NCBI GenBank assembly: GCA_945861715.1
Contig: CAMAVK010000001.1
Coordinates: 458,908-522,907 of the forward strand
Reading direction: 5' to 3'
From: Candidatus Woesearchaeota archaeon
GTDB taxonomy: Archaea > Nanobdellota > Nanobdellia > Woesearchaeales > GW2011-AR9
Length of the DNA: 64,000 bases
Positions 2,257-43,632 of the stretch are shown in pieces. Position 1 is the first letter of the stretch; every line of letters starts with the position of its first letter. A program made the translations under genes and the position numbers. The notes under the pieces are model-generated. The model was given only the letters and a program-made list of their open reading frames with translations. It had not been told where the DNA came from and made no database searches.

Positions 2257-3183
2257 TTACTTCTTTTTATTCTTCTCAACATCCTTACCAAGTTTCAATT
2301 TTTTAATCAATTCTTTATATCGATTTCGAATAGTAACTTCAGTAACGCCTGCAACATCAGCAACTTCTCTTTGAGTTCGCTTCTCACCGTGAATAAGTGA
2401 GGCAACATACAAAGCCGCAGCTGCAATTCCAGTAGGTCCTCGACCTGATGTCAACTCAATATCTCGAGCCATCTCTAAAATTTCAACAGCCTTAGATTGA
2501 GTTTCAGCACTCAGTTTAAGCGCGGATGCAAATCGAGGAATATAATCTGCCGGATTACTAGGACGAATTGTTATTTCAAGTTCTCGAGTAACAAAACGGT
2601 ATGTTCGACCAATTTCTTTCTTCTCAATGCCAGACGCTTCACCCATCTCATCGAGTGTTCGTGGAATCTCATGACGTCGACATGCTGCATACAATGCTCC
2701 TGCAATAACTGACTCCATAGACCGACCACGAACTAATCCTTTCTGTACGGCAAGTCGATATATTCGAGCCGCTTCCTCTTCAACAGAACGCGGTAATCGT
2801 AAATAGGAACTCACTCTTTTCAACTCAGCTAAAGCAACCTTTAAGTTTCGCTCAATTGCCGTACTAATACGGATATTCCATTTTCGAAGTCGAAAGAACT
2901 TATCTCTTTCTTTATCCGAATCCAGTTTATAAAAATCGGACGCCGATCCTACTTCTGTTCCAAGGCCACGATCGAATTGCGTCTCAGATGTAGGTGCCCC
3001 AGTTCGTCGTCTGGCTCCTTCTCCACCATCATCATCAAAGTCCCGCCATTCTTGAGAAAAATCAACCATTCTATCTTCTAAAACAAGACCACAATCTCTA
3101 CAAGAGGTTTCACCTTTTTCAACATCCCGGTAGATATTTTTACTTGCACACTCCGGACATTCTTTAATGGTTTTGCGGATCAT
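2257..3183 (-). CDS. tfb: Transcription initiation factor IIB (archaeal TFB)
   Basis: N-terminal zinc ribbon CPECAS...CRDCGLV, then two cyclin-fold repeats with a TFB-typical C-terminus (GRGPTGIAAAALYVASLIHGEKRTQREVADVAGVTEVTIRNRYKEL). TAA stop. A GGGGAG Shine-Dalgarno-like motif sits upstream. Confidence 0.9.
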   Translation of the reverse strand: MIRKTIKECPECASKNIYRDVEKGETSCRDCGLVLEDRMVDFSQEWRDFDDDGGEGARRRTGAPTSETQFDRGLGTEVGSASDFYKLDSDKERDKFFRLRKWNIRISTAIERNLKVALAELKRVSSYLRLPRSVEEEAARIYRLAVQKGLVRGRSMESVIAGALYAACRRHEIPRTLDEMGEASGIEKKEIGRTYRFVTRELEITIRPSNPADYIPRFASALKLSAETQSKAVEILEMARDIELTSGRGPTGIAAAALYVASLIHGEKRTQREVADVAGVTEVTIRNRYKELIKKLKLGKDVEKNKKK

Positions 3184-15828: not shown

Positions 15829-16080
15829 ATGCCTGCAGTACTTGATGGACTATTGGATAAAAAGACCGCATCATTACTGAAAGTTCTTTTAAAAAATAAA
15901 GACGAAATATACCATCTCCACTCTCTTTCTAGGGCGTCAAAAGTACCCGTCTCCTCTACTTCTAGAATTGTAACTAAACTAATCAAATTAGATCTGATAA
16001 CAACAAGAAAAGTCGGCAATATGGTCCTATTCCAAGCATCAAATTCTGAAAAAGCAAAATTGGTGGGTGATTTGCTATGA
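15829..16080 (+). CDS. Small winged-helix (MarR/ArsR-like) transcriptional regulator
   Basis: 83 aa. Helix-turn-helix region IYHLHSLSRASKVPVSSTSRIVTKLIKLDLITTRK followed by a beta-wing (VGNMVLFQ). Its TGA stop overlaps the start of the giant surface-protein gene (ATGA). Confidence 0.5.
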   Translation: MPAVLDGLLDKKTASLLKVLLKNKDEIYHLHSLSRASKVPVSSTSRIVTKLIKLDLITTRKVGNMVLFQASNSEKAKLVGDLL

Positions 16081-19000
16081 GTCAATCCACTAAGTCTACC
16101 AAAACCGTACTCCGCCTAAGTTTATTCATAATCATCCTCCTCCTCACATCAGCAACCGTACTCGCAGCTACAAAACCTATTGCTGGCTATATTTTCAAAA
16201 CAGACGGAACAACAGTGGCACCAAACGCGAGCGTACGAGTCTACGTAAACCAAGCTTCCGTGAGTGCAGCAAACCCGTGCTACACAAACCCTGCTGTTCT
16301 CTCCGGTGTAGATGGTTCATGGTCTACTAATCTCGCAAATTTGAAGCGAGCAGATAATGGGAATGATTGCTCTGGATTTTGGGCAACAGGGGATGCAATA
16401 TGGGCAAACGCCATTGGCCAAAACGTAACTCCTGAACACGGAAACCTTTCCACTGCAAATACAACCATCGCATCAGGAACCGGACTCCAGTATCTCTCAA
16501 ACGTTAGTCTCCCTGCAGGGCCGGATCGAATCGCACCAGTAATTCGTCTCATCGCCCCACCAAACGCCACCAACAACACCAACGGCTCCATCCTCTTTCA
16601 ATACAATGTAACCGATGACAGTCTCATTAGTAATTGTAGTGTACTATTCAACGGTACAATAAATACGACAAATACCTCTATAACCAGAAACATCACCATG
16701 AACTTCAGCCTCACCAATATTGCTGATGGCCACTATAATTGGTCTGTTGGATGTTATGATAACGTTACAAATTATAACACCAGTATTGAGACATGGTTCC
16801 TAAACGTATCGAAAGTAGGTCATTATAACTTAAGTCTTGTAACCCCGACGTCCAACACCAGCGTTGAACAGAATCAATTTTTTACTTTTACTATGCAAGT
16901 GAAATGTTATGATGGAAGCTGTGGTGATACAAATGCAAGTCTTGACCCTATTATTCTTGGTGAAGATCAAACAATTGTCTCCCAGAACAAATTTCACTCA
17001 CAAGGATTCTTTGAAAAAATATGGTCTTACTTCGCTGAATTCTTTTCAGGGAATCTCATCACCGGGCAAGTAACAGGTGCGCTCGTTCCCATGGTACCAA
17101 CCACACCATTTTACACTAATATGTCAAACCCTATGAACCTAAGTAATGTAAGTTGTCTAGCTAATATGGCTCAAAATAGCGCATGCAACGTAACATGGTA
17201 TGTCAACGCGTCAGGTCCTGTTGGGACCGTAGCAGAGTTCTGGGCATTTACTAACTCTACCATATACACCGCGCTGAACAATGAGACTCCACATTTATTT
17301 ATCAGTATAGTTGAATCAATCCCACCTGCTATTATTAATTACACTCCTCGAGGAGAGACTTTTAATGTCACCCAATTAATAGAAATCAGTCTTAACACCA
17401 CCGACCCCCAAAACATATCTTTTGTAAAAGCAAACATTACATATCCTAATGCAACCGTTGACCTAATTAATCTTACTCGTGTGGGTACTACCGATAAATA
17501 CAACAGCAGTTACACCATCCCGCCAAGAACTGGGTTCTACCTAATCAAATTTTGGGTAAATGATACAGGAAACAACATCAACGGAACAACTCAAACAAAT
17601 TTCACAGGTCAAGATATTGTCCCTCCTAACGTTACCACCCTCCTCCCTGCAATTTCAACAAGCTACAACACATCCCAAATAATTCAAATATCACTTAACG
17701 CAACTGACGTAACAAATATCAGCACAACGTTTGCCACCATCACTTCACCCAACAGCACCAAAACAAACGTCACCCTAAGTCGCCAAGGCACTACATACAA
17801 ATACAATGGAACCTACACTGTTCCTCCCCGCATTGGCACATTCAACATTACCTTCTTTGCAAATGATAGTAAAAATAATATCAACAATAGTGAAGTTTCA
17901 AACTTCACGGTACTCGATGGCGAATATCCTCGCCTAGCAACCATTGTAGAAGCCCCAACTGACCCGGCAACATACGTATATAATCAAACATATTTTTTCA
18001 ACATTACTATCACTGACAATATTGGAATAAACAATGTTATCATGCAATTCAATAACACAAATTACACCGCAGAAATAAAAAATCAAAGCACCATTTTTCA
18101 ATTCAACATCTCAGATCTCGCAGCCGCAACATACAATTATGTCTGGTATGCAAATGACACCAGTGGCTACATCAATTCTACTTCCTCTACCTACACCATC
18201 AGCAAAGCATCATCAACTGTAAATCTAACTTTATATGGAAATGATAGTAACACCAATATCAGTGTAAACACACCAGTTAACCTAAGCGGGGTACGAATCG
18301 CCGGTGATGGACAAATAGAATTACTTCAAAACGGATCCGTTCTCTCACTTGGCAATACAAGTACCTCCTCGAACCAAACCTATACCACGCTAACTTCATA
18401 TAATATCAGCATTCGACACAATTCTACTCAAAATTTCACTGCAAGTCAAGAAGATCATGTCCTCGCAATAAAGGATTATATTTCACCAAACGTCACCCTT
18501 GTAACCGTAAACGCTTCAAGCGTCAATCAAACGCAACATGTCAGAATAAACGCAACGATAATTGACAATCTTCAAATTGATTCCATTAAAACACAAATTT
18601 GGTTCCCCAACGGATCGGTCCAAAATTTCACCATGAATAACATCAGCTCTTCGTTTAATACCACCTATATCACAATTCTCACATCAAACATAGGAAACCA
18701 CACTGCACAAATTCTAGCTAACGATACCTCCGGAAATAGAAATACCACTCAAAACGTAAGCTTTTGGGTGTATGACATAACTCCACCTGCAGTTACTTTA
18801 CTCATACCCGCAAATCAAACTACTCTAGGAAATGGGACTACTATCCAATTGTCATCAACAACGACAGATAATATCGCAATATCGAGTACATATGCAAATA
18901 TTACTTACCCAAATAATTCCATTCAATCTATCCCCCTCACACTTACCACCGCATCAAAATATAATTCATCCTTGCTTCTAGGTCAACAAACAGGAATTTA

Positions 19001-21080
19001 TCTGATGCAAATATTTTCCAATGATTCAAGTAACAACATCAATGCAACAGAACAAGTATTGTTCTATGTGAACGAGACGGACGGTCCTCCAAATGTAACT
19101 CTAGTTGCAGTAAACGTATCAAGCGTTAATCAAACGCAGCATGTCAGAATCAATGCAACTGTCATGGATGCAATAAGTGTAGATACCGTTAAAACGCAAA
19201 TATACTTCCCTAATGGCTCAATCCAAAATTTCACGATGAGTAATGTGAGCTCCTACTATAACACCACCTATATCACAATTCTCACATCAAACATTGGAAA
19301 TCATACCGCGCAAATTATTGCAAACGATACCAATGGAAATAGAAATACCACTCAAAACGTCACCTTTTGGGTATACGACATCACACCACCCAATGTCACA
19401 GCTTTAATCCCGACAAATCAATCCACTGTATTCACCGGAACCAGCATTCAAATCGCAGCGAATGTAACAGACAACACTGCTCTCTCAACAGTATACGCAA
19501 ATATCACCTATCCAAATAGTTCAATCACCTCATTGCCCTTATCGTTAGCAACAGGTGCCAAATACAACTCTACTCTCACCTTGGGTTCATACAATGGAAC
19601 CTACACACTCCTTATCTTTTCCAATGATAGCAGCAATAATATCAACGCCACCGAACAAACACAGTTCTTTGTAAACACCTCAGATAATGCGCCAGTTGTA
19701 ACCTTGCTAAACCCTGCAGACAGCTATACGAATACTACTTCTACCTATCTTGAGATGAACTTTTCATGTTCTGCAACCGATGATTACGCCCTACGCAATA
19801 TCTCATTATACCTAAGCAATCCATCAAACACCAATTTTAGTCAGAATCAAAGTACTCTTCTTAATGGTACAACTAACTCTACTTCATGGCTACTTAATCT
19901 TACCCAAGGCTCCTTCACCTGGAACTGTCAAGCAATTGACAACAGTACTCAACTCGATTGGGCATCAAACCGCAGTATAACCCTATCTGCCCCTTCTTCC
20001 TCAAGCAGCAGTTCAAGCTCCTCCGGTGGTGGTGGTGGAAGTAGTTCAAGTACATCGAGTAGTAGTGGCGGGCCTATACCACAAAAAAGAGTAGATGTAA
20101 ATGCAACCCCGACATGTCTATGGAATGAAAGCATCATCGCAGGAAATTGCATGTACAATGAAAGTAATGTATTGCTAAATGCTTCACCTACTGAGATCCC
20201 AATAAACTCAAACCAAGGAATATTCAATTTAGTGGGAAGAGCATTTGATATAAACATCCATGCCTTTGGTCTAGACCTTAGTCTACTTTACATTGCCTTG
20301 ATGGTATTCCTCTTGGGCTTATTAGTGCTTTTACTGACCAGACGAAAACGACCATACCTTATTATTCAAGCACCAACCATGGCCGCCCCCGGTGACACCT
20401 TTGATGTAAACGTCAAACTAGGTAATGATTATCGGCCAGTTGTATTAAGAATTTGGAGTATTTTCGTTCCTGAGGGAGAAGTTGGTCTGCTAAACATCAA
20501 AAATATTATCGGCAAAGGCCCAACCTATCGTCTCGAAGTAGACCGATCAGAAATAAGGCGTGGCACCATTCCTGTGGCTATACCAGCACAGTTTATGCCG
20601 GGGAAATATCGAATCATCACGTGTGTGCGGTGGGAATACAAGAAGACAAATGAGCCAAAATCCCTTGTAGAAAAAGGAACAACCCAAGAAAAAATAAAAA
20701 TAACTGCTCATCAAAATAAAATAACGGTTACCCAAACTAAGTTACCTATCCCACCTGCGCTTCTAGTATTAGTGGGTAAACGAAGTCGGCTTCCAGAAAA
20801 TATCGCAATCAACTTACAAACCATGCGTGAAAAGCTCGCGCCAACTGCAAACATTGTTGAACTCGCAAGAACTCGTGAAGAAATTGTACTACGTATGCAC
20901 CAAGCAGAGAAAATGCATAACTTGCGTCTCAAAAAGTTAGAAATCGAAGAGGATATGCGACACACCGAAGAAGAAGGAGTACTACAGCTTCAGTTAACGA
21001 GACTAAATAGTACATTAACTAAGAATGCGGCACCCGTGCAACGCTCAACACAAACACCCACAAAAAGGGACAGAAAGTAA
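16077..21080 (+). CDS. Giant (1667 aa) heavily sequon-decorated surface protein: signal peptide, conserved N-terminal module, about 12 beta-sandwich repeats, poly-Ser/Gly stalk, single TM, ~260-aa cytoplasmic tail with a coiled coil
   Basis: Signal peptide LRLSLFIIILLLTSATVLA. N-terminal module homologous to the 13622 protein (ANPCYTNPAVLSGVDGSWSTNLANL...CSGFWATGDAIW...SGTGLQYL). N-x-S/T sequons occur every ~5-10 residues. Stalk SSSSSSSSSGGGGGSSSSTSSSSGG. TM LLYIALMVFLLGLLVLLLTRRKRP. The cytoplasmic tail ends in a K/E/R-rich coiled coil. Confidence 0.7.
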   Translation: MSQSTKSTKTVLRLSLFIIILLLTSATVLAATKPIAGYIFKTDGTTVAPNASVRVYVNQASVSAANPCYTNPAVLSGVDGSWSTNLANLKRADNGNDCSGFWATGDAIWANAIGQNVTPEHGNLSTANTTIASGTGLQYLSNVSLPAGPDRIAPVIRLIAPPNATNNTNGSILFQYNVTDDSLISNCSVLFNGTINTTNTSITRNITMNFSLTNIADGHYNWSVGCYDNVTNYNTSIETWFLNVSKVGHYNLSLVTPTSNTSVEQNQFFTFTMQVKCYDGSCGDTNASLDPIILGEDQTIVSQNKFHSQGFFEKIWSYFAEFFSGNLITGQVTGALVPMVPTTPFYTNMSNPMNLSNVSCLANMAQNSACNVTWYVNASGPVGTVAEFWAFTNSTIYTALNNETPHLFISIVESIPPAIINYTPRGETFNVTQLIEISLNTTDPQNISFVKANITYPNATVDLINLTRVGTTDKYNSSYTIPPRTGFYLIKFWVNDTGNNINGTTQTNFTGQDIVPPNVTTLLPAISTSYNTSQIIQISLNATDVTNISTTFATITSPNSTKTNVTLSRQGTTYKYNGTYTVPPRIGTFNITFFANDSKNNINNSEVSNFTVLDGEYPRLATIVEAPTDPATYVYNQTYFFNITITDNIGINNVIMQFNNTNYTAEIKNQSTIFQFNISDLAAATYNYVWYANDTSGYINSTSSTYTISKASSTVNLTLYGNDSNTNISVNTPVNLSGVRIAGDGQIELLQNGSVLSLGNTSTSSNQTYTTLTSYNISIRHNSTQNFTASQEDHVLAIKDYISPNVTLVTVNASSVNQTQHVRINATIIDNLQIDSIKTQIWFPNGSVQNFTMNNISSSFNTTYITILTSNIGNHTAQILANDTSGNRNTTQNVSFWVYDITPPAVTLLIPANQTTLGNGTTIQLSSTTTDNIAISSTYANITYPNNSIQSIPLTLTTASKYNSSLLLGQQTGIYLMQIFSNDSSNNINATEQVLFYVNETDGPPNVTLVAVNVSSVNQTQHVRINATVMDAISVDTVKTQIYFPNGSIQNFTMSNVSSYYNTTYITILTSNIGNHTAQIIANDTNGNRNTTQNVTFWVYDITPPNVTALIPTNQSTVFTGTSIQIAANVTDNTALSTVYANITYPNSSITSLPLSLATGAKYNSTLTLGSYNGTYTLLIFSNDSSNNINATEQTQFFVNTSDNAPVVTLLNPADSYTNTTSTYLEMNFSCSATDDYALRNISLYLSNPSNTNFSQNQSTLLNGTTNSTSWLLNLTQGSFTWNCQAIDNSTQLDWASNRSITLSAPSSSSSSSSSSGGGGGSSSSTSSSSGGPIPQKRVDVNATPTCLWNESIIAGNCMYNESNVLLNASPTEIPINSNQGIFNLVGRAFDINIHAFGLDLSLLYIALMVFLLGLLVLLLTRRKRPYLIIQAPTMAAPGDTFDVNVKLGNDYRPVVLRIWSIFVPEGEVGLLNIKNIIGKGPTYRLEVDRSEIRRGTIPVAIPAQFMPGKYRIITCVRWEYKKTNEPKSLVEKGTTQEKIKITAHQNKITVTQTKLPIPPALLVLVGKRSRLPENIAINLQTMREKLAPTANIVELARTREEIVLRMHQAEKMHNLRLKKLEIEEDMRHTEEEGVLQLQLTRLNSTLTKNAAPVQRSTQTPTKRDRK
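18485..19690 (+). repeat. Near-identical 603-nt (201-aa) tandem duplication inside the giant surface-protein gene
   Basis: Unit 1 (NVTLVTVNASSVNQTQHVRINATIIDN...ITILTSNIGNHTAQILANDTSGNRNTTQNVSFWVYDITPP...FSNDSSNNINATEQ) is repeated immediately as unit 2 (NVTLVAVNVSSVNQTQHVRINATVMDA...ITILTSNIGNHTAQIIANDTNGNRNTTQNVTFWVYDITPP...FSNDSSNNINATEQ). Nucleotide strings such as caagcgt(c/t)aatcaaacgca(a/g)catgtcagaat(a/c)aa(c/t)gcaac recur at 18519 and 19122. Confidence 0.85.
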
Positions 21081-21644: not shown

Positions 21645-22364
21645 ATGTCCAATACTAATCGACGAGAAATGCTACTATCCCTAACCTCAATTATTGTTAC
21701 ATCACTACTTGACCCTCTCCCTCAACAAGCTCAAGCAGAGACCCCGCGCGAGTTGAAAAGAAAAGAAGAAGAGCTAAGAACAATCTATCTTTTACAAAAC
21801 GCAAGAACCCAGTATCCTCTTCCCCAAGGCGTACACGTCATTGATTCAGTAAGTGGTGGCCGAGATTTTGGTGCAACCAGGTGGCGTCATGGGAAACGCG
21901 AAAGGCACAACGGTATTGATCTCTTTGTTCATCAGGGAACCGATGTCTACCCGATAATTCAGGGAAAAGTAAAATCAGTAACCAGGGAACGATACGCCGG
22001 CAAATTTGTTACTGTTGAATCTCTCTATCCTTTCAAATTCAAAAAAAGTTCTCCCATTGAAGATGCAATCATCTATACCGACTACATGCATTTACAAACC
22101 CAAACAGTTCGTCCTGGCCAGAGCGCACAATTCAACACTATTTTAGGAAAAGTAGGCAGGACAGGAGTACATGTATCTGGGCCACATCTCCATGTGCAGA
22201 TGTACACTAAACGAAACGGCGCAAAAATATTCATTGATCCACGAAAAGCGCTTTCGAGTGGTTCCTATTACAGTCTCATTGAATCCAGAGGAAAAGAAGA
22301 TGTATATCGCGAGGAATTTAATCGTATCAATTATCCTACGCAGTACGTCAGAACAACACTCTGA
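21645..22364 (+). CDS. Secreted M23 (LytM/lysostaphin-type) zinc metallopeptidase
   Basis: N-terminal signal/TM (LLSLTSIIVTSLLDPLPQQAQA). M23 HxxxD motif HNGIDLFV and HxH motif GPHLHVQMY, with the intervening glycine-rich core (ILGKVGRTGVHVSG). Confidence 0.7.
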   Translation: MSNTNRREMLLSLTSIIVTSLLDPLPQQAQAETPRELKRKEEELRTIYLLQNARTQYPLPQGVHVIDSVSGGRDFGATRWRHGKRERHNGIDLFVHQGTDVYPIIQGKVKSVTRERYAGKFVTVESLYPFKFKKSSPIEDAIIYTDYMHLQTQTVRPGQSAQFNTILGKVGRTGVHVSGPHLHVQMYTKRNGAKIFIDPRKALSSGSYYSLIESRGKEDVYREEFNRINYPTQYVRTTL

Positions 22365-22384: not shown

Positions 22385-23335
22385 TTAATTGGGTCCTTTA
22401 TCAATAATATAAAATATCTCATTTTCAAACTCAAGTATTTCAAATGCCCATCCCAGGCGATGACATAACCATTCCATCCATCGTCGTTTCGGAGCAGTCA
22501 TGGGTTTACCTGACATGGTCTTTGTAGCAAAACTTGCAACGACAAATCGGCAAGGAATTCGTGATAGGAGCGTCTCCGAACGGGTGTGACCGGAATTTCG
22601 ATCAATCACATCCAATATTTTAAAACAAAATGCCACATCACCTTTCTCTATCTCACAACTTCGAATGTCACCCACTATTGCTAACCATTGTTGTACGGAG
22701 TTTTTTTTGCGTGAAGAAAAAAAATGATTCAAAACATCAATTTCTTTCGTATTAATATCATATCCTACATACTTTATGACTTTTAATGGTGCTACAGAAA
22801 CACTAATCGGATTAAGTCCACAAGCTAAATCTACAATTCTAACCCCTTGTTTGTACTCCTGTCCACGTAACCTTACAATGCTTGAAAAAATATCTGAATA
22901 TAATGTTGGATATATTGGCTTTCTCTCCTTTGTTGATTCATGCAGTCCCAAAAGTGTTTGTACATTTCTCACAGACGGATTCTTCAAATATGCGCTCAGA
23001 GCCTCATCAAGTTCGCTTGAGTCACGCGCTCGAAATAAACCATACGTACGACGCATTCTTTCTCGCGTGAGTTTTAAAAGCATCTTAAACTCTTTGGATT
23101 TAGTATGAATCAATGTATCTAACAAATTTGGGTCATCCTTTCCTTTAATCAGAGAAATATTTTTTACTTTATGTTTTAATATAGATGGATTTGAAATAAT
23201 GACTTTTTCAAGTTCACATAATATCACTGTAGGAGTAAGGGCCTTCAATTCTTTTTTCTTTTGAATTTCGCAAACAAGTATATCTTTCCAAGACGTTTGA
23301 CCCTGCGCCACATGTAATAACTTTGACATCCTCAA
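22385..23335 (-). CDS. FmrO-family (ArmA/RmtB-like) 16S rRNA (guanine1405-N7) methyltransferase homologue
   Basis: Blocks characteristic of the aminoglycoside-resistance methyltransferases: LLGLHESTKERKPIYPTLYSDIFS (compare ...HASTKER...LY.FIF), the SAM motif IVDLACGLNPISV (compare VLDIACGLNP), FCFKILDVIDRN, and FATKTMSGKPM near the C-terminus (compare FPT(R/K)SLGGR.KGM). Confidence 0.5.
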   Translation of the reverse strand: MRMSKLLHVAQGQTSWKDILVCEIQKKKELKALTPTVILCELEKVIISNPSILKHKVKNISLIKGKDDPNLLDTLIHTKSKEFKMLLKLTRERMRRTYGLFRARDSSELDEALSAYLKNPSVRNVQTLLGLHESTKERKPIYPTLYSDIFSSIVRLRGQEYKQGVRIVDLACGLNPISVSVAPLKVIKYVGYDINTKEIDVLNHFFSSRKKNSVQQWLAIVGDIRSCEIEKGDVAFCFKILDVIDRNSGHTRSETLLSRIPCRFVVASFATKTMSGKPMTAPKRRWMEWLCHRLGWAFEILEFENEIFYIIDKGPN

Positions 23336-23342
23336 ATAAGGG

Positions 23343-24095
23343 TTGAAGCGTATAAAAAGGTTTTTAAATTGCCCTCTCCCTATGCTTGATATGTCTCACT
23401 CATCATCTTCTCATTCTCCATCCTCTCCCACTCCATCCTCAAATCCAACTAACTGGAAATCAAAAGCGAAGCGAGCGTGGAAATTCTTTTGGCATGACGA
23501 TTCTCTTGCGAGCTGGCTTGCAAATATGGTTGTTGCTTTCTTGGTCATATATTTCATCGTCTATCCAGTTCTAGGATCCGCTCTAGGCACTAGTTTTCCT
23601 ATAGTGGCTGTATTGAGTGAAAGTATGCAACATAATATCCATGATGAAAATCTCTGCGGTCAAAGTATGGACAGAAGCACCTGGAAAGACTCTTTTGACA
23701 ACTATTGGGATCTCTGTGGGTATTGGTACGAACAACGAAATATTACAAAGGAACAATTCACTGATTTTCCTCTCAAAAATGGTTTTAACAAGGGAGATGT
23801 CATTATCCTCTACAAACCAAACAATATCCAAGTGGGTGATGTACTTATATTTCAGGGCAACCGTCCACAACCAATCATCCATCGAGTCGTAAAAGTATGG
23901 CAAGAGGATAGCAATACCTATTATCAGACAAAAGGTGATCACAATGGTGACAGTATCACGGGCGCACTTGGTGAATCAAAAATAAGCAAGGATCGCTTAC
24001 TGGGTAAAGGAGTAATACGACTCCCTTATCTGGGGTGGGTCAAAATTCTCTTTGTTGAGTTCATGTCTTTGTTTGGGATTCAAATCACCAGATAG
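23343..24095 (+). CDS. Signal peptidase I, archaeal/eukaryal Sec11 type
   Basis: N-terminal TM. Catalytic Ser box VLSESMQH. GDVIIL box. Conserved His (QPIIHRVVKV). GDHNGDS (GDN...D) box. Confidence 0.6.
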   Translation: MKRIKRFLNCPLPMLDMSHSSSSHSPSSPTPSSNPTNWKSKAKRAWKFFWHDDSLASWLANMVVAFLVIYFIVYPVLGSALGTSFPIVAVLSESMQHNIHDENLCGQSMDRSTWKDSFDNYWDLCGYWYEQRNITKEQFTDFPLKNGFNKGDVIILYKPNNIQVGDVLIFQGNRPQPIIHRVVKVWQEDSNTYYQTKGDHNGDSITGALGESKISKDRLLGKGVIRLPYLGWVKILFVEFMSLFGIQITR

Positions 24096-25960: not shown

Positions 25961-26072
25961 CGGGCCCTGAGGGATTTGAACCCCCGACCTCGTGGTACCT
26001 ATCAATTACTCATTCCTTTCGGATTAGCAATGTTAAGAGCCACGCGCTCTAGCCAGCCTGAGCTAAGAGCCC
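25961..26072 (-). tRNA. tRNA-Lys (anticodon CUU) with a ~37-nt canonical-position intron (after nt 37). CCA is not encoded.
   Basis: Minus-strand read GGGCTCT-TA-GCTC-AGGCTGGCTA-GAGC-G-CGTGG-CTCTTA[intron ACATTGC...GATAGGT]A-CCACG-AGGTC-GGGGG-TTCAAAT-CCCTC-AGGGCCC-G. All four stems pair, U33 and A37 are present, and the T-loop is TTCAAAT. Exons are at about 26034-26072 and 25961-25996. Confidence 0.85.
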
Positions 26073-35145: not shown

Positions 35146-37638
35146 ATGACCAATAGTGTACTTGATGTTGATGAACAAAATCTTACTCCTGGGATGAAAC
35201 AATACAGGGAAGTAAAAGAAAAACATCCAGACTGTGTAGTCATGCTTCGCATGGGAGACTTCTTTGAAATGTTCTATGAAGACGCGGTCACTGCGTCAAG
35301 AGAGCTCGACATCACTTTAACATCCCGTGGTCAAGGTGAAAAACGCGCACCACTCGCAGGCATTCCCTTTCATGCTATTGAACCGTATCTAGGAAAACTT
35401 GTAAAGCGCGGCTACAAAGTTGCAATTGTAGAACAACTTGAAGATCCAAAAAAAGCCAAAGGTCTAATCAAGCGTGGAGTAGTGCGAATAGTTACCGCAG
35501 GAACTTTAGTTGAATCATCTCTTCTTACCGAAAAAGAAAATAACTATCTAGCAAGCATTGCAATTCACAACACAAGCGCAGCTCTTGCCATTGCTGACAT
35601 CTCAACAGGTGAGTTTCGAATCGAATCATTTTCAACATTATCAGACCTATTCGCATCCCTCACCCAAAATAATCCCTCAGAAATACTGCACGCGCACAGC
35701 TTAGCTGTAAACTCCGACATCATCGCCCGTCTGAAAATCATCGCTCCTCTTGAATCACTTGATGACCAACTTTACAAATATGACGCAGCAAAAAAAAGAA
35801 TCTGTGATTTCTTTAATCTAACTTCTCTAGATCCCTTTCAGCTTGAGAATCAAAAATTAGAAGTTGCGGCCGCCGCATCACTATTGAACTATCTCGAGAA
35901 AACCCACAAAACAAAACTAGTACACCTAACAAAAATAACCAGATCAAGTACCAAGCATATGATCATTGACGCAAATACCTTTCGCAGTTTAGAAATCACG
36001 AAATCCCTTAAAGACGGATCAAAAAAAGGCACGTTACTTGAAGTATTAGACGACACCAAAACAGCCCTCGGCGGACGCCTCTTGAACAAATGGCTCACAG
36101 CTCCCCTCCAAGATCAAATTCAAATGCAAGACCGCATCGCAGCCATTACTGATTTAAAGTCATCTTCTCTACGTCTCGCCCAACTCCAAAATACCCTCAA
36201 CACTATTCAAGATATCGAACGACTTCTATCGAAGGTACATACAGCCATTGCCACCCCAAAGGACATCTTAAGTTTACGTAACTCGCTGCGACCACTCCCA
36301 ATCCTCATAACTCAACTCTCACCAAAAACACTTCGTGCATTAAGATTAAAAGAAATCGCCACCTTAAATACTCACCACGAGTTGGTTCATTATCTCACAC
36401 AAGCAATGCGTGATGAAGCTCCGCACAGCACCCGTGAAGGTGACATCTTCAACTCAGAGTTTCACCAAGAACTCTCTAGTTTGAGAAACATCCGTGATCA
36501 CGCATCCGACATCATAACGAAAATTGAAGAAGCTGAAAAAAAGAAAACGGGAATTAATTCTCTCAAAGTAGGCTACACACGAATATTTGGGTACTACATC
36601 GAAATACCTCGAAAGAATACTCAACAAATCCCTACGACCTACATGCGAAAACAAACAACTGCCAACGCCGAAAGATACATAACTTCCGAATTAAAAGAAA
36701 TGGAAGACAAAGTTCTCAATGCTGATGAGAAAATAAAAGAGTTAGAATATACCCTCTTCCATGAACTTTTAAACAACATAAAATTTCATACTTCCGAGTT
36801 ACAAGAAACTGCCAAGCATATCGCAGAGCTCGACGTACTCTGCGCGCTCACCAGCGTCGCGATAAAAAATAATTATCATGCCCCAACACTATCCAACGAA
36901 AAAGATCTAATCCTTACCAACGCAAGACACCCCGTCGTAGAAACGCTTGCATCAAATTTCATCTCAAATAGTATCACGCTGCAAGACGGACATATGATGA
37001 TCATCACTGGACCAAACATGGCTGGTAAATCAACCATCATGCGACAGTGCGCATTAATAATCTACTTAGCTCATATTGGCTCCTACGTTCCAGCAACATC
37101 CGCAATCATCCCACTCACAGATAAAATATTTAGTCGAGTAGGAGCTCAAGACGATTTAGCAACAGGAAAATCAACCTTCTTAGTTGAAATGCATGAAACT
37201 GCACACATAGTAAACAACGCAACCGCCAATTCATTTATTATCCTTGACGAAATCGGAAGAGGAACAAGCACCTTTGATGGTGTCTCCATTGCGTGGAGTG
37301 TAGCTGAGTACATTCATAACCACATCCGCGCAAAAACCATGTTTGCCACACACTATCACATACTAAACAATCTCACTCAAACTCTTCCTCGAATTGAAAA
37401 CTTCAACATCGCAGTCGAAGAAAATCAAAAAGAAAATTCCATCACCTTCTTACACACATTAATCCCCGGCGGAACGGATCAAAGTTATGGGATTCACGTC
37501 GCAAAAATCGCAGGCATCCCCCAACAAATCCTCGAGCGTGCAACACAAATACAACAGACATTAGAAAAAGATGACAAAATGGTGCGTCTCCTTAAAGCGA
37601 AGCGACTCGACGACCAGAAATCAATAACTGAATTTTAA
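35146..37638 (+). CDS. mutS: DNA mismatch repair protein MutS (bacterial-type MutS1)
   Basis: Domain I mismatch-binding motif LTPGMKQYREVKEKHPDCVVMLRMGDFFEMFYEDA (Phe-x-Glu). Walker A ITGPNMAGKSTIMRQ. Walker B/ABC signature IILDEIGRGTSTFDG. HTH-like C-terminus. TAA stop. No mutL in the window. Confidence 0.88.
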   Translation: MTNSVLDVDEQNLTPGMKQYREVKEKHPDCVVMLRMGDFFEMFYEDAVTASRELDITLTSRGQGEKRAPLAGIPFHAIEPYLGKLVKRGYKVAIVEQLEDPKKAKGLIKRGVVRIVTAGTLVESSLLTEKENNYLASIAIHNTSAALAIADISTGEFRIESFSTLSDLFASLTQNNPSEILHAHSLAVNSDIIARLKIIAPLESLDDQLYKYDAAKKRICDFFNLTSLDPFQLENQKLEVAAAASLLNYLEKTHKTKLVHLTKITRSSTKHMIIDANTFRSLEITKSLKDGSKKGTLLEVLDDTKTALGGRLLNKWLTAPLQDQIQMQDRIAAITDLKSSSLRLAQLQNTLNTIQDIERLLSKVHTAIATPKDILSLRNSLRPLPILITQLSPKTLRALRLKEIATLNTHHELVHYLTQAMRDEAPHSTREGDIFNSEFHQELSSLRNIRDHASDIITKIEEAEKKKTGINSLKVGYTRIFGYYIEIPRKNTQQIPTTYMRKQTTANAERYITSELKEMEDKVLNADEKIKELEYTLFHELLNNIKFHTSELQETAKHIAELDVLCALTSVAIKNNYHAPTLSNEKDLILTNARHPVVETLASNFISNSITLQDGHMMIITGPNMAGKSTIMRQCALIIYLAHIGSYVPATSAIIPLTDKIFSRVGAQDDLATGKSTFLVEMHETAHIVNNATANSFIILDEIGRGTSTFDGVSIAWSVAEYIHNHIRAKTMFATHYHILNNLTQTLPRIENFNIAVEENQKENSITFLHTLIPGGTDQSYGIHVAKIAGIPQQILERATQIQQTLEKDDKMVRLLKAKRLDDQKSITEF

Positions 37639-38191: not shown

Positions 38192-39274
38192 ATGATCTAC
38201 GCTACCCTCACCCAAGAAAACCGTACAGAGAACTCGTTTAGTTTAGAAGGAAACACTGCAATTGGTCGCAAGCTCCTTCCGGATAAGGACTTATTCGAGT
38301 TATGGGAACGAAGAATAACCTCTTCCAAGCACAAAAATAATGGTGCCACACGCATGGCGCCCATTTCAGTTACAGAATTACAACATCAATATTCTCAAAA
38401 AAATCTCGATCTCATAATCAGCGACAATATTGACGTATCGCGTCGTCATCTCCTATTTTGTGTGCCTAACTGGGGAATGAATGCCTATCACGTAATCGAT
38501 TTATTCAGTTATTATGGCACCACCGTAAACGGCGAAAACTTAACTCCTGCGGTGCCTAAAAAGGTAAGCCATGGTGATAGAATCACAATTCTAGGCAAAA
38601 CTGAAATCCCTTTTATATTCAAAGAAGTAGAACGCGTTACAAAGTATGAAGCAATTATTATCGCGAACCCAGACGGGACCTTAGACTGTAATGAGCCTAT
38701 CGCAGCGGAACTAGAAGATTTACTTCTCAAACGTAATTTCAAAGTAGACACATTAAAATCAAATGTTCAACTTAAACAAGTAACAAATAGTATAGCACAA
38801 AAAGCGAGATCATTACGGTCGCACGACTATTTATTATTTCTGTATCTTGGGCATGGATCAAAAAACGGCGAATTACGTTTTGCAGATAATGGTTTCGTGC
38901 ATGCCTCAAATTTATACTCCTCACTAAGTACTGTTCCCGCAAAAAAAATCATTTTATTAGATTGTTGTTATGGGAAGAATTTTCTCATTCCTGAGATTCC
39001 TCTGAACTCAGCTGTTGCCGTAAGTACATCGAGGCTAGATCTATCTTACACCAATACGTTTACCAAGGGATTAATTCGACGATTACAAGACCCGAGGGGG
39101 GGTTATTTTGAGCGTGTGATTGATGATGCTTGCCATTATGCCGAAGTAGAATTACGTCTATGTGGGATGGAACCCGGAACAAAAGCCTCAATGGTCACTT
39201 ATTTTAATACAGCAAGAGATGAAGATCGTGAACAAGCTCGCAAAGATATGAATAATTTTATTCATCAAAAATAA
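38192..39274 (+). CDS. FHA domain - caspase-like (peptidase C14, metacaspase/orthocaspase) fusion protein
   Basis: N-terminal FHA signatures: NTAIGRK, VSRRHLLF, GTTVNGENL, GDRITILG. C-terminal C14 catalytic dyad: His in LFLYLGHGSKNGELRF and Cys in KKIILLDCCYGKN (compare the DCCHSG of metacaspases). Confidence 0.65.
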   Translation: MIYATLTQENRTENSFSLEGNTAIGRKLLPDKDLFELWERRITSSKHKNNGATRMAPISVTELQHQYSQKNLDLIISDNIDVSRRHLLFCVPNWGMNAYHVIDLFSYYGTTVNGENLTPAVPKKVSHGDRITILGKTEIPFIFKEVERVTKYEAIIIANPDGTLDCNEPIAAELEDLLLKRNFKVDTLKSNVQLKQVTNSIAQKARSLRSHDYLLFLYLGHGSKNGELRFADNGFVHASNLYSSLSTVPAKKIILLDCCYGKNFLIPEIPLNSAVAVSTSRLDLSYTNTFTKGLIRRLQDPRGGYFERVIDDACHYAEVELRLCGMEPGTKASMVTYFNTARDEDREQARKDMNNFIHQK

Positions 39275-42432: not shown

Positions 42433-43632
42433 ATGAAAAAGGTGGTTGATGCTGTTATAATTATTATACTTCTATTATCACTCACATCCATCGCACTAGC
42501 TGACACCTATATCAGTGGAGTTTTTCCCACTATCAATAGTACCAACATCAACGCGTTTCAAGTCAATGGAAATGCAGCACAAACCGGAAGTGTACTCCGG
42601 CTTACTCCCGCGTCTAACAATCAAGCAGGTAGTGCATTTTGGAAATACAAAACGGATTTTCCTGCCAACCGCTCATTTGCAACTTATTTCTCATTTCAAA
42701 TAACAAGCACGGGTGGCGGCGGAGCTGACGGATTAGTCTTTGTCATACAACCCGATTCAAATACGGCTGGATCTTCAGGAGGCGGCCTTGGATTCTCCGG
42801 CATACCAAACGCATTTGGTGTCGAATTTGATACCTATCAAAACGGTGACTATGGTGATCCGAACGGGAATCACATTGGTATTGATTTAAGCCCGGGTGGT
42901 TTGGGCAGCGTTACTTCTGTAGCCACTGTTACCGTTGACTCAATCAACTCCTCGTGGTCTCTTGAAGATGGGGCAATATATCACACCTGGGTTGAATATA
43001 ACGGGAGTACCCAAAATATTACTATTCGCTTGAACCGCAACAACAATACTCGTCCAATAAATGCAGTATTAAATTACACCACAAACCTCTCCAATGTATT
43101 TGCACAGCAAGCGTACGTCGGCTTTACTGCTGCTACTGGCGGTGCCTACGAGAATCACGATATAAACAGCTTCTTCATAAATAATAACTATCTCTCTGAC
43201 GGAATAAACATTAATACGACCACTTATCAACCCTATGCATACAGGCTACTATTAAGCCAAAGTCATTTAAACGTCTCCGCCGATGGATACTCCGTCTCCG
43301 CTATAACCATCAACGCAACCGATCTTGATGGAAACTTATTACCCACTCAAAACATTTCTTTTACAACAACCTTGGGAAACATTATGCCTTTAGGGGATAA
43401 ATATGCTTCAAGTGGTTTAACTAATAGCACAGGTCAATTGTATCCAGTCTACGCTAGTTCCCATCTACCTGGAACCGCAACTATCACTGCCTCCGTCCCA
43501 GGTGGAGCATATAATATCACTACTGTGACTTTTTTAAATAGTGGTGCAACTGTTCCTGAGTTATCAACTATAGCTCTATTCCTCATCATCGCATCTGTTT
43601 TCTCTGGGTTCTTTTATATACGCACAAAATAA
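42433..43632 (+). CDS. Secreted surface protein with an N-terminal L-type (legume-lectin-like) lectin domain, a Big-like domain and a C-terminal TM anchor
   Basis: Signal peptide IIIILLLSLTSIALA. Legume-lectin signature blocks FQVNGNAAQTGSVLRLTP...NQAGSAFW...FATYFSFQITSTGGGGADGLVFVIQP...GGGLGFSGIPNAFGVEFDTYQNGDYGDPNGNHIGIDL. C-terminal ELSTIALFLIIASVFSGFFYIRTK. Confidence 0.65.
   Translation: MKKVVDAVIIIILLLSLTSIALADTYISGVFPTINSTNINAFQVNGNAAQTGSVLRLTPASNNQAGSAFWKYKTDFPANRSFATYFSFQITSTGGGGADGLVFVIQPDSNTAGSSGGGLGFSGIPNAFGVEFDTYQNGDYGDPNGNHIGIDLSPGGLGSVTSVATVTVDSINSSWSLEDGAIYHTWVEYNGSTQNITIRLNRNNNTRPINAVLNYTTNLSNVFAQQAYVGFTAATGGAYENHDINSFFINNNYLSDGININTTTYQPYAYRLLLSQSHLNVSADGYSVSAITINATDLDGNLLPTQNISFTTTLGNIMPLGDKYASSGLTNSTGQLYPVYASSHLPGTATITASVPGGAYNITTVTFLNSGATVPELSTIALFLIIASVFSGFFYIRTK

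Follow-up and report, generated by a model that had tools for sequence, protein, structure and literature searches.

A chromosomal FmrO/ArmA/Rmt-family methyltransferase gene in a Woesearchaeota archaeon as a candidate ribosomal RNA-modifying enzyme

We analysed a 64,000-nucleotide stretch of contig CAMAVK010000001.1 from a Candidatus Woesearchaeota archaeon, referred to below as the window, in which a minus-strand gene encodes a protein that we assign to the FmrO/ArmA/Rmt family of 16S ribosomal RNA (rRNA) methyltransferases, the N7-methylguanosine 1405 (m7G1405) type. The best explanation of the data would be that the gene encodes a functional S-adenosylmethionine (SAM)-dependent RNA methyltransferase, and we consider it probable, with a chance of about 0.65, that the enzyme constitutively methylates N7 of the G1405-equivalent base of its own 16S rRNA, with aminoglycoside insensitivity as a by-product. 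In this reading we infer the RNA target, the docking mode, the constitutive expression and the physiological role. The gene itself is an ordinary, lineage-typical member of a known, biochemically uncharacterised archaeal branch of the family.

The public gene call places the coding sequence as follows.

22385..23329, minus strand: FmrO/Arm-family methyltransferase, 314 amino acids from the ATG at 23329, with the stop codon at 22385-22387

The mechanical open reading frame (ORF) covers 22385..23335 on the same strand and begins two codons further upstream, at a TTG at 23335 (316 amino acids); residue numbers given below are those of the 314-residue protein. The reading frame is intact throughout 22385..23329, and the public gene-call protein (P0001, 314 amino acids) is 100% identical and has been recovered from independent assemblies, among them contigs 124 kb and 797 kb long.

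Comparison with PF07091, a check proposed in the first-pass annotation, returned FmrO as the best profile match, above its cut-off (62.3 bits, E = 6e-17, cut-off 27), with residues 125-310 covering model positions 77-255 of 255. The generic Rmt model of NCBIfam, NF000466, matched residues 78-311 over model positions 30-253 at 113.8 bits (E = 8.4e-33), and the RmtB-H 'exception' models gave 35-59 bits against cut-offs of 500-550; by these scores the protein is homologous to, but outside, the curated clinical Rmt group. Searching the PDB with the single sequence gave significant matches to RmtB, RmtF, RmtC, ArmA and Sgm only (E = 6.5e-12 to 5e-4), and a profile of 43 clade members recovered the same enzymes from the whole PDB (RmtC 1.3e-37, Sgm 8e-35, ArmA 5.7e-30, RmtF 3.9e-29, RmtB 1.3e-25) and nothing else below 1e-3. 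The N1-methyladenosine 1408 (m1A1408) methyltransferases Kam and NpmA contributed no chain to the PDB sequence matches at E <= 1, to the profile search or to the top 50 Foldseek matches. The Pfam score and the sole significant PDB matches bear out the earlier naming of the gene as an ArmA/RmtB (FmrO) homologue, and we assign the protein as a true member of the m7G1405-type family.

The predicted fold agrees with this assignment. The AlphaFold2 (AF2) model reached a predicted local distance difference test score (pLDDT) of 88.5 and a predicted template-modelling score (pTM) of 0.83, with confidence across the catalytic domain, and the best 16 Foldseek matches in the PDB were all m7G1405 enzymes (E = 5.5e-15 to 7e-10), the next family following at 5e-8. 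Foldseek aligned 302-310 columns to full-length RmtB and Sgm with a template-modelling (TM) score, normalised to the target, of 0.82-0.84; because only about three quarters of the chain belong to the catalytic domain, the N-terminal helical domain must superimpose too. In the model, helices at residues 14-23, 33-46 and 79-96 form N1 and those at 104-116 and 120-127 form N2, so that an N-terminal helical domain, consisting of an N1 three-helix bundle and N2, is predicted to be present. A better match to another class I methyltransferase family lacking the FmrO N-terminal domain, which the first-pass annotation had named as evidence to the contrary, was not what emerged, since FmrO was the best profile match and the predicted fold superimposed on full-length RmtB and Sgm.

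To locate functional residues, we combined a profile-to-PDB alignment with an hmmalign alignment of 301 clade proteins and the five solved enzymes; for the loop that carries RmtC Met245, which MAFFT placed inconsistently even among the solved enzymes, we used the profile hidden Markov model (HMM) alignment, in which Met is aligned in all five. Residue roles were taken from crystallography and isothermal titration calorimetry on Sgm (PMC2896518) and from cryo-electron microscopy (cryo-EM) of RmtC bound to the 30S subunit together with minimum inhibitory concentration (MIC) work (PMC10288597). The features concerned are the following.

22922..22942, minus strand: HESTKER (residues 130-136), the family-specific SAM-binding motif, equivalent to RmtC H105-x-S107-T-x-E-R111 and to Sgm H102/S104/T105/R108
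22808..22831, minus strand: DLACGLNP (residues 167-174), motif I of the class I methyltransferase fold, with D167, N173 and P174 invariant in alignment A1
22757..22759, minus strand: D191, the motif II acidic residue binding the SAM ribose, equivalent to RmtC Asp160 and Sgm Asp156
residues 236-239, minus strand: FKIL motif
22619..22621, minus strand: K237, equivalent to the universally conserved RmtC Lys204
22499..22531, minus strand: FATKTMSGKPM (residues 267-277), counterpart of RmtC K236 and Loop237-246, with K270, S273, K275 and M277 equivalent to K236, S239, R241 and M245
23033..23074, minus strand: KLTRERMRRTYGLF (residues 86-99), the third helix of the N1 bundle, with K86, R89, R93 and F99 equivalent to RmtC K47, R50, His54 and Tyr60

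All motif blocks quoted in the first-pass annotation are thus found in the protein, as HESTKER, DLACGLNP, FKIL and FATKTMSGK. Within the 301 clade proteins, the SAM-binding positions are close to fixed: S132 (RmtC S107) is Ser in 299, R136 (RmtC R111, Sgm R108) is Arg in all 301, and the motif I residue D167 is Asp in 299, while the D191 column holds Asp in 244 and Glu in 56 and that of the motif III residue D221, also present here, Asp in 246 and Asn in 48. The Sgm cofactor residues H102, S104, T105, R108, D156 and D182 all have counterparts in the window protein. Lys204 of RmtC contacts N7 of the flipped G1405 (PMC10288597), and its equivalent K237 is Lys in 299 of the clade proteins; F99, at the position of RmtC Y60, is Phe in 269 and Tyr in 29. 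The loop residues are somewhat more variable, with Lys in 193 and Arg in 36 at K270, Lys in 241 and Arg in 34 at K275 (a conservative change from RmtC R241, Lys also being found in ArmA), and Met in 246, Ile in 40 and Leu in 8 at M277. Docking-helix residues K86 and R89 are retained as Lys in 284/301 and Arg in 288/301, and every invariant column of the clade alignment is kept in the window protein. The SAM-binding and guanine-positioning residues are conserved.

Like RmtC, RmtB, ArmA and RmtF (PDB 8GHU, 6PQB, 3FRH, 3FZG, 6PI9), the protein is predicted to combine an N-terminal helical bundle with a class I Rossmann methyltransferase, and it shares with them HxSTxER, the D-x-x-C-G-x-N-P motif I, the motif II and III aspartates, the guanine-sandwiching aromatic residue and lysine (F99, K237), and the basic residue and Met of the loop (K275, M277). 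Those enzymes are plasmid- or transposon-borne in Gram-negative pathogens, whereas the window gene is chromosomal, syntenic and, as far as its distribution tells, vertically inherited in archaea, and its substrate would be the archaeal 30S subunit. The actinomycete self-resistance enzymes Sgm, FmrO, KgmB and GrmA (PDB 3LCU/3LCV) are comparably close (Foldseek TM to target 0.83-0.84, profile E = 8e-35) and, like the window protein, are chromosomal intrinsic enzymes; unlike them, the window gene has no aminoglycoside biosynthetic cluster nearby, resides in a small-genome archaeal host and falls on a separate neighbour-joining (NJ) branch.

The gene belongs to a broad archaeal distribution. A direct search found 93 clusters at 90% identity, all carrying PF07091, whose identity to the window protein is 29-48%, and a profile search found 1,267 clusters at E <= 1e-5; among the best 120 of these, the organism names, where one is given, are all Woesearchaeota, Nanoarchaeota or 'archaeon' with the single exception of the close homologue P0126, labelled Candidatus Buchananbacteria, a bacterium of the candidate phyla radiation (CPR). 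An exhaustive HMMER scan of 1.84 billion representatives of 50%-identity clusters yielded 1,956 families at E <= 1e-3, of which 861 reached E <= 1e-30; the 150 top-scoring ones all had 242 bits or more, and RmtC, the best solved enzyme, reached only 133 bits with the same profile. A census of GTDB species-representative genomes with one peptide pattern, which gives a lower bound, detected a relative in at least 582 genomes. The best 80 of these are all labelled as archaeal metagenome-assembled genomes (MAGs), mostly Woesearchaeota or Nanoarchaeota, with about two dozen third-party annotation (TPA) assemblies named 'uncultured Methanosarcinales', and their sources are aquifers, marine water, a trench and sediments.

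In 51 of the 80 related loci, the gene stands head-to-head with a signal peptidase homologue (52-72% identical), usually at a distance of ~60 bp, and this arrangement persists at a protein identity across the syntenic loci of only 30-49%. TFS and a 175-residue protein with only a faint PepSY match each recur in 35 of the 80 loci. Since signal peptidase I, TFS and the 175-residue protein have no obvious link to rRNA modification, these neighbours serve as evidence of vertical inheritance only. The GC content of the gene, 0.36 against a window mean of 0.395, is not anomalous, and no mobile-element genes, no aminoglycoside biosynthesis genes and no other resistance genes turned up among the window ORFs scanned with Pfam. 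When an NJ tree was rooted at its midpoint, the solved bacterial enzymes, five in number, grouped as a clade of their own outside all 300 archaeal-type sequences; the tree is crude and its sample was picked with the archaeal profile, so that it speaks to separateness and not to the direction of descent. Conserved synteny, breadth, ordinary GC content and the separate bacterial branch point to long vertical inheritance and argue against recent transfer, and together they argue that the gene belongs to a large, distinct and vertically inherited Nanoarchaeota/Woesearchaeota subfamily. A recent horizontal transfer or a mobile context, which we considered as a separate candidate, was rejected in view of the ordinary composition, the conserved synteny and the lack of mobile-element genes among the Pfam-scanned ORFs of the window.

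Two further observations concern members of this subfamily. About two dozen loci, among them L003, L004 and L010, are named 'uncultured Methanosarcinales archaeon', and many of them show the signal-peptidase synteny of the loci labelled Woesearchaeota or Nanoarchaeota; the Buchananbacteria and Methanosarcinales labels probably reflect mis-binning or placeholder taxonomy, with a hint that gene exchange between CPR and DPANN organisms could lie behind such labels. In addition, two relatives (P0246, 482 amino acids, and P0263, 489 amino acids) have the FmrO domain (residues ~3-282) fused to a second class I methyltransferase domain (Methyltransf_11/25), for which only generic class I methyltransferases and uncharacterised PDB entries were matched, with no similarity to NpmA/Kam or other rRNA enzymes.

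The archaeal branch has been on record for some time, and the statement in the first-pass annotation that the family is known mainly from aminoglycoside producers and resistant bacteria understates that record as well as the very large size of the branch. For the Arm family, NEQ545 of Nanoarchaeum equitans was reported as "the first archaeal ortholog" and, in the accompanying tree, lay closer to the pathogen-type than to the producer-type enzymes (Husain et al. 2010, PMC2896518). Subsequently, a homologue was listed among the 15 genes that were common to both nanoarchaeal genomes and present in no other archaeon, as a putative Nanoarchaeota genomic signature (Podar et al. 2013, PMC3655853). 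NEQ545 and its Nst1 orthologue resemble the window protein as Arm/FmrO proteins of DPANN archaea in which the catalytic domain is conserved and the N-terminal domain diverged, and NEQ545, compared here by its published description, most probably belongs to the same subfamily in the broad sense; NEQ545 is predicted to lack one N-terminal helix, whereas in the window protein the prediction shows a complete three-helix N1 bundle plus an insertion. Our literature search turned up nothing relevant beyond the 2010 and 2013 papers and no paper tying the FmrO family to DPANN archaea more broadly, and the size of the branch and its conserved synteny appear to lack an earlier description in the searchable literature.

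By analogy with RmtC, the N-terminal helical domain would dock on the surface formed by helices h24, h27, h44 and h45 of the assembled small subunit (SSU), where the K275/M277 loop and neighbouring residues would distort h44. The guanine equivalent to Escherichia coli G1405 would then flip out between F99 and the bound SAM, and K237 would orient its N7 for methyl transfer. G1405 lies within positions 1392-1407 of SSU rRNA, a stretch that is universally conserved, so archaea should possess the target base. Since the gene is a stable, lineage-wide chromosomal component across habitats, the modification is probably constitutive in these archaeal ribosomes, and this, not a recently acquired resistance gene, would make the organisms intrinsically insensitive to 4,6-disubstituted deoxystreptamine aminoglycosides.

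Several observations weigh against this reading. Unlike RmtC, RmtB, ArmA and RmtF, to which it is only 17-24% identical, the window protein has an Arg for His54, a shorter loop and two private insertions. The position of RmtC His54, a near-universal and activity-essential residue that contacts G1516 of h45 (PMC10288597), is taken here by Arg93, and in the clade (n = 301) by Arg in 244 proteins and His in 41. The loop that distorts h44 is shorter by two residues (SGKxMTAPRRxW against SGRxxGMEENY), and T207 and N248 in RmtC numbering are replaced by Asp and Pro. The first ~75 residues are unalignable by sequence, both with the Rmt models and in the profile-to-PDB comparison, and it is there that equivalents would be expected of RmtC Lys20 and Tyr21, the near-universal N1 residues that contact h45 (PMC10288597); a nearly invariant KKKEL loop (residues 24-28) after helix 1 appears to occupy the topologically equivalent place in the predicted model. 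Moreover, the NF000466 score stays below the curated equivalog cut-off of 250, neither the window nor 82 loci contain a 16S rRNA gene, the literature search found no published test of the activity of an archaeal member, and for NEQ545 itself, with its catalytic motifs perfectly conserved and its N-terminal domain strongly diverged, function was left open (Husain et al. 2010, PMC2896518). The putative housekeeping role, finally, is read from synteny and breadth only.

These departures could mean that the same fold and chemistry serve another target, either a different SSU guanine or another RNA, reached through the diverged N-terminal domain and unrelated to the aminoglycoside site. The replacement of His54 by Arg in 244/301 clade proteins, the score under the NCBIfam cut-off (113.8 versus 250), the ~75 N-terminal residues unmatched by Rmt models and the shortened loop all favour such retargeting, as do the strong divergence and uncertain function reported for NEQ545 (PMC2896518) and the fact that in RmtC it is the N-terminal domain that directs docking (PMC10288597). 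We nevertheless regard it as unlikely, because the clade at large keeps the residues contacting the flipped G1405 and distorting h44 around A1408 and U1495 (Y60 as Phe, K204, K236, R241 as Lys, and M245), the docking-helix residues K47 and R50 are kept, and Arg may be able to stand in for His in a guanine or phosphate contact. Conservation of the h24/h27/h44/h45 docking surface extends to all domains of life, which counts further against a change of target. It is most improbable that the window gene is an inactive or decaying copy, an explanation suggested by its being the most divergent member of the clade, with nearest relatives only 44-49% identical, 326 bits against the clade profile where typical members score 440, and two insertions private to it in comparison with 42 aligned relatives, one inside the N1 bundle (residues ~50-73, pLDDT 64-69) and one just before motif I (residues ~152-163, VRLRGQEYKQGV); against this stand the intact frame, the retention of all invariant clade columns, the confident model of the catalytic domain and the identical protein from independent assemblies.

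The gene might instead be a dedicated resistance determinant, kept under, or acquired from bacteria through, aminoglycoside exposure in soil, sediment or groundwater. Every characterised member of the family confers aminoglycoside resistance (PMC2896518, PMC10288597), NEQ545 lay nearer the pathogen-type enzymes in the 2010 tree (PMC2896518), and the Buchananbacteria label of P0126 hints at exchange or at mis-binning. However, hundreds of species from very different habitats carry the gene, its synteny is conserved, it lacks a mobile-element context and a compositional anomaly, the solved bacterial enzymes fall outside the archaeal clade in the NJ tree, and the scanned window ORFs hold no aminoglycoside biosynthesis or resistance genes, so that we judge this explanation decidedly unlikely. 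The suggestion of the first-pass annotation that the gene was acquired horizontally, or answers environmental aminoglycosides, accordingly fares poorly in its recent form, given synteny kept in 51 of 80 loci at 30-49% identity, an unremarkable GC content and bacterial enzymes that branch separately.

Constitutive methylation of the G1405-equivalent base, if it is real, would make a mark known almost only for antibiotic resistance a normal ribosomal feature in a large uncultivated archaeal lineage, and would bear on the origin of the ArmA/Rmt resistance genes, on the size of their environmental reservoir and on the drug-free role of m7G1405 in decoding; the hundreds of natural variants of the 30S-docking surface could also be useful for the design of inhibitors against the clinical enzymes. 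A broader proposition, to which we give slightly less than even chances, is that m7G at this position is a constitutive native SSU rRNA modification throughout the Nanoarchaeota and Woesearchaeota, in which case most ArmA/Rmt diversity would lie in DPANN housekeeping enzymes. If so, the family might even have originated in DPANN archaea, an entire lineage of archaea would have intrinsic insensitivity to drugs of the gentamicin and kanamycin type, and the archaeal His54-to-Arg docking variant would represent a second mode of 30S-surface recognition. For the window itself, the consequence is mainly one of correct annotation, as a lineage-typical gene and not an acquired resistance element.

The host belongs to the DPANN archaea (Woesearchaeota/Nanoarchaeota), in keeping with the archaeal origin that the first-pass annotation had claimed. 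The window contains a TFIIB/TFB gene at 2257-3183 and an archaeal-type signal peptidase gene, genes for TFS, an archaeal marker, adjoin many homologues of the methyltransferase in the related loci, and the named relatives of the methyltransferase and of its neighbour gene are Woesearchaeota/Nanoarchaeota MAGs save for the one Buchananbacteria label. A tRNA gene with an insert adds to this evidence.

25961-26072, minus strand: tRNA gene (Rfam, 50 bits) in which 39 nt are inserted directly behind the anticodon loop

ARAGORN reported no tRNA anywhere in the window, and the 39-nt insert is most likely an archaeal intron.

The methyltransferase gene is flanked, as the first-pass annotation had stated, by an M23 peptidase gene and a signal peptidase gene on the opposite strand, both confirmed by profile matches.

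21645..22364, plus strand: M23 metallopeptidase gene (PF01551, 53 bits), its stop codon 20 bp from that of the convergent methyltransferase gene
23330..23381, no strand: divergent intergenic region of 52 bp between the methyltransferase and signal peptidase genes, by direct reading of the sequence
23382..24095, plus strand: archaeal-type signal peptidase I (TIGR02228), 237 amino acids in the public gene call, alternative start at 23343

The signal peptidase I, which scored 68.7 bits against the archaeal model TIGR02228 (cut-off 51.85), is the head-to-head partner of the methyltransferase gene across the 52-bp spacer. In this spacer lie two back-to-back A/T-rich TATA-like elements, one directed towards the peptidase gene (TATAAAAA at 23351-23358) and the other towards the methyltransferase gene (TTTTTAAAT at 23361-23369), which suggests a putative compact bidirectional archaeal promoter giving near-leaderless transcripts. 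A scan for sigma-70 promoters and terminators, which is not applicable to archaea, returned a count equal to that in shuffled sequence. The M23 neighbour is not conserved, no homologue of it being found in the 80 related loci. This protein, of a peptidoglycan endopeptidase family, has a twin-arginine-like signal (NRREMLL...AQA). An archaeon is expected to be without murein, and the peptidase could act on bacterial cell walls.

Elsewhere in the window, a plus-strand gene at 16077-21080 encodes a 1,667-residue predicted surface protein with a signal-like segment at its N terminus, repeated Ig-like modules containing dozens of N-x-S/T sequons, a linker of poly-Ser/Gly, a membrane anchor at the C terminus and a charged tail. 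It resembles the giant glycosylated proteins, of the cell surface or for adhesion, that are typical among DPANN episymbionts. Two other plus-strand genes have architectures unusual for an archaeon, namely a protein with FHA and caspase (Peptidase_C14) domains at 38192-39274 and, at 42433-43632, a fusion of bacterial Ig-like domains with a lectin of the legume type (L-type), and a third, at 35146-37638, encodes a full-length bacterial-type MutS with domains I-V in this small-genome archaeon. GC skew is negative in every 2-kb bin of 1-64000 (about -0.04 to -0.35) and its cumulative value falls monotonically to -6.1, a strong and uniform excess of C over G on the plus strand that shows no switch point in the 64 kb.

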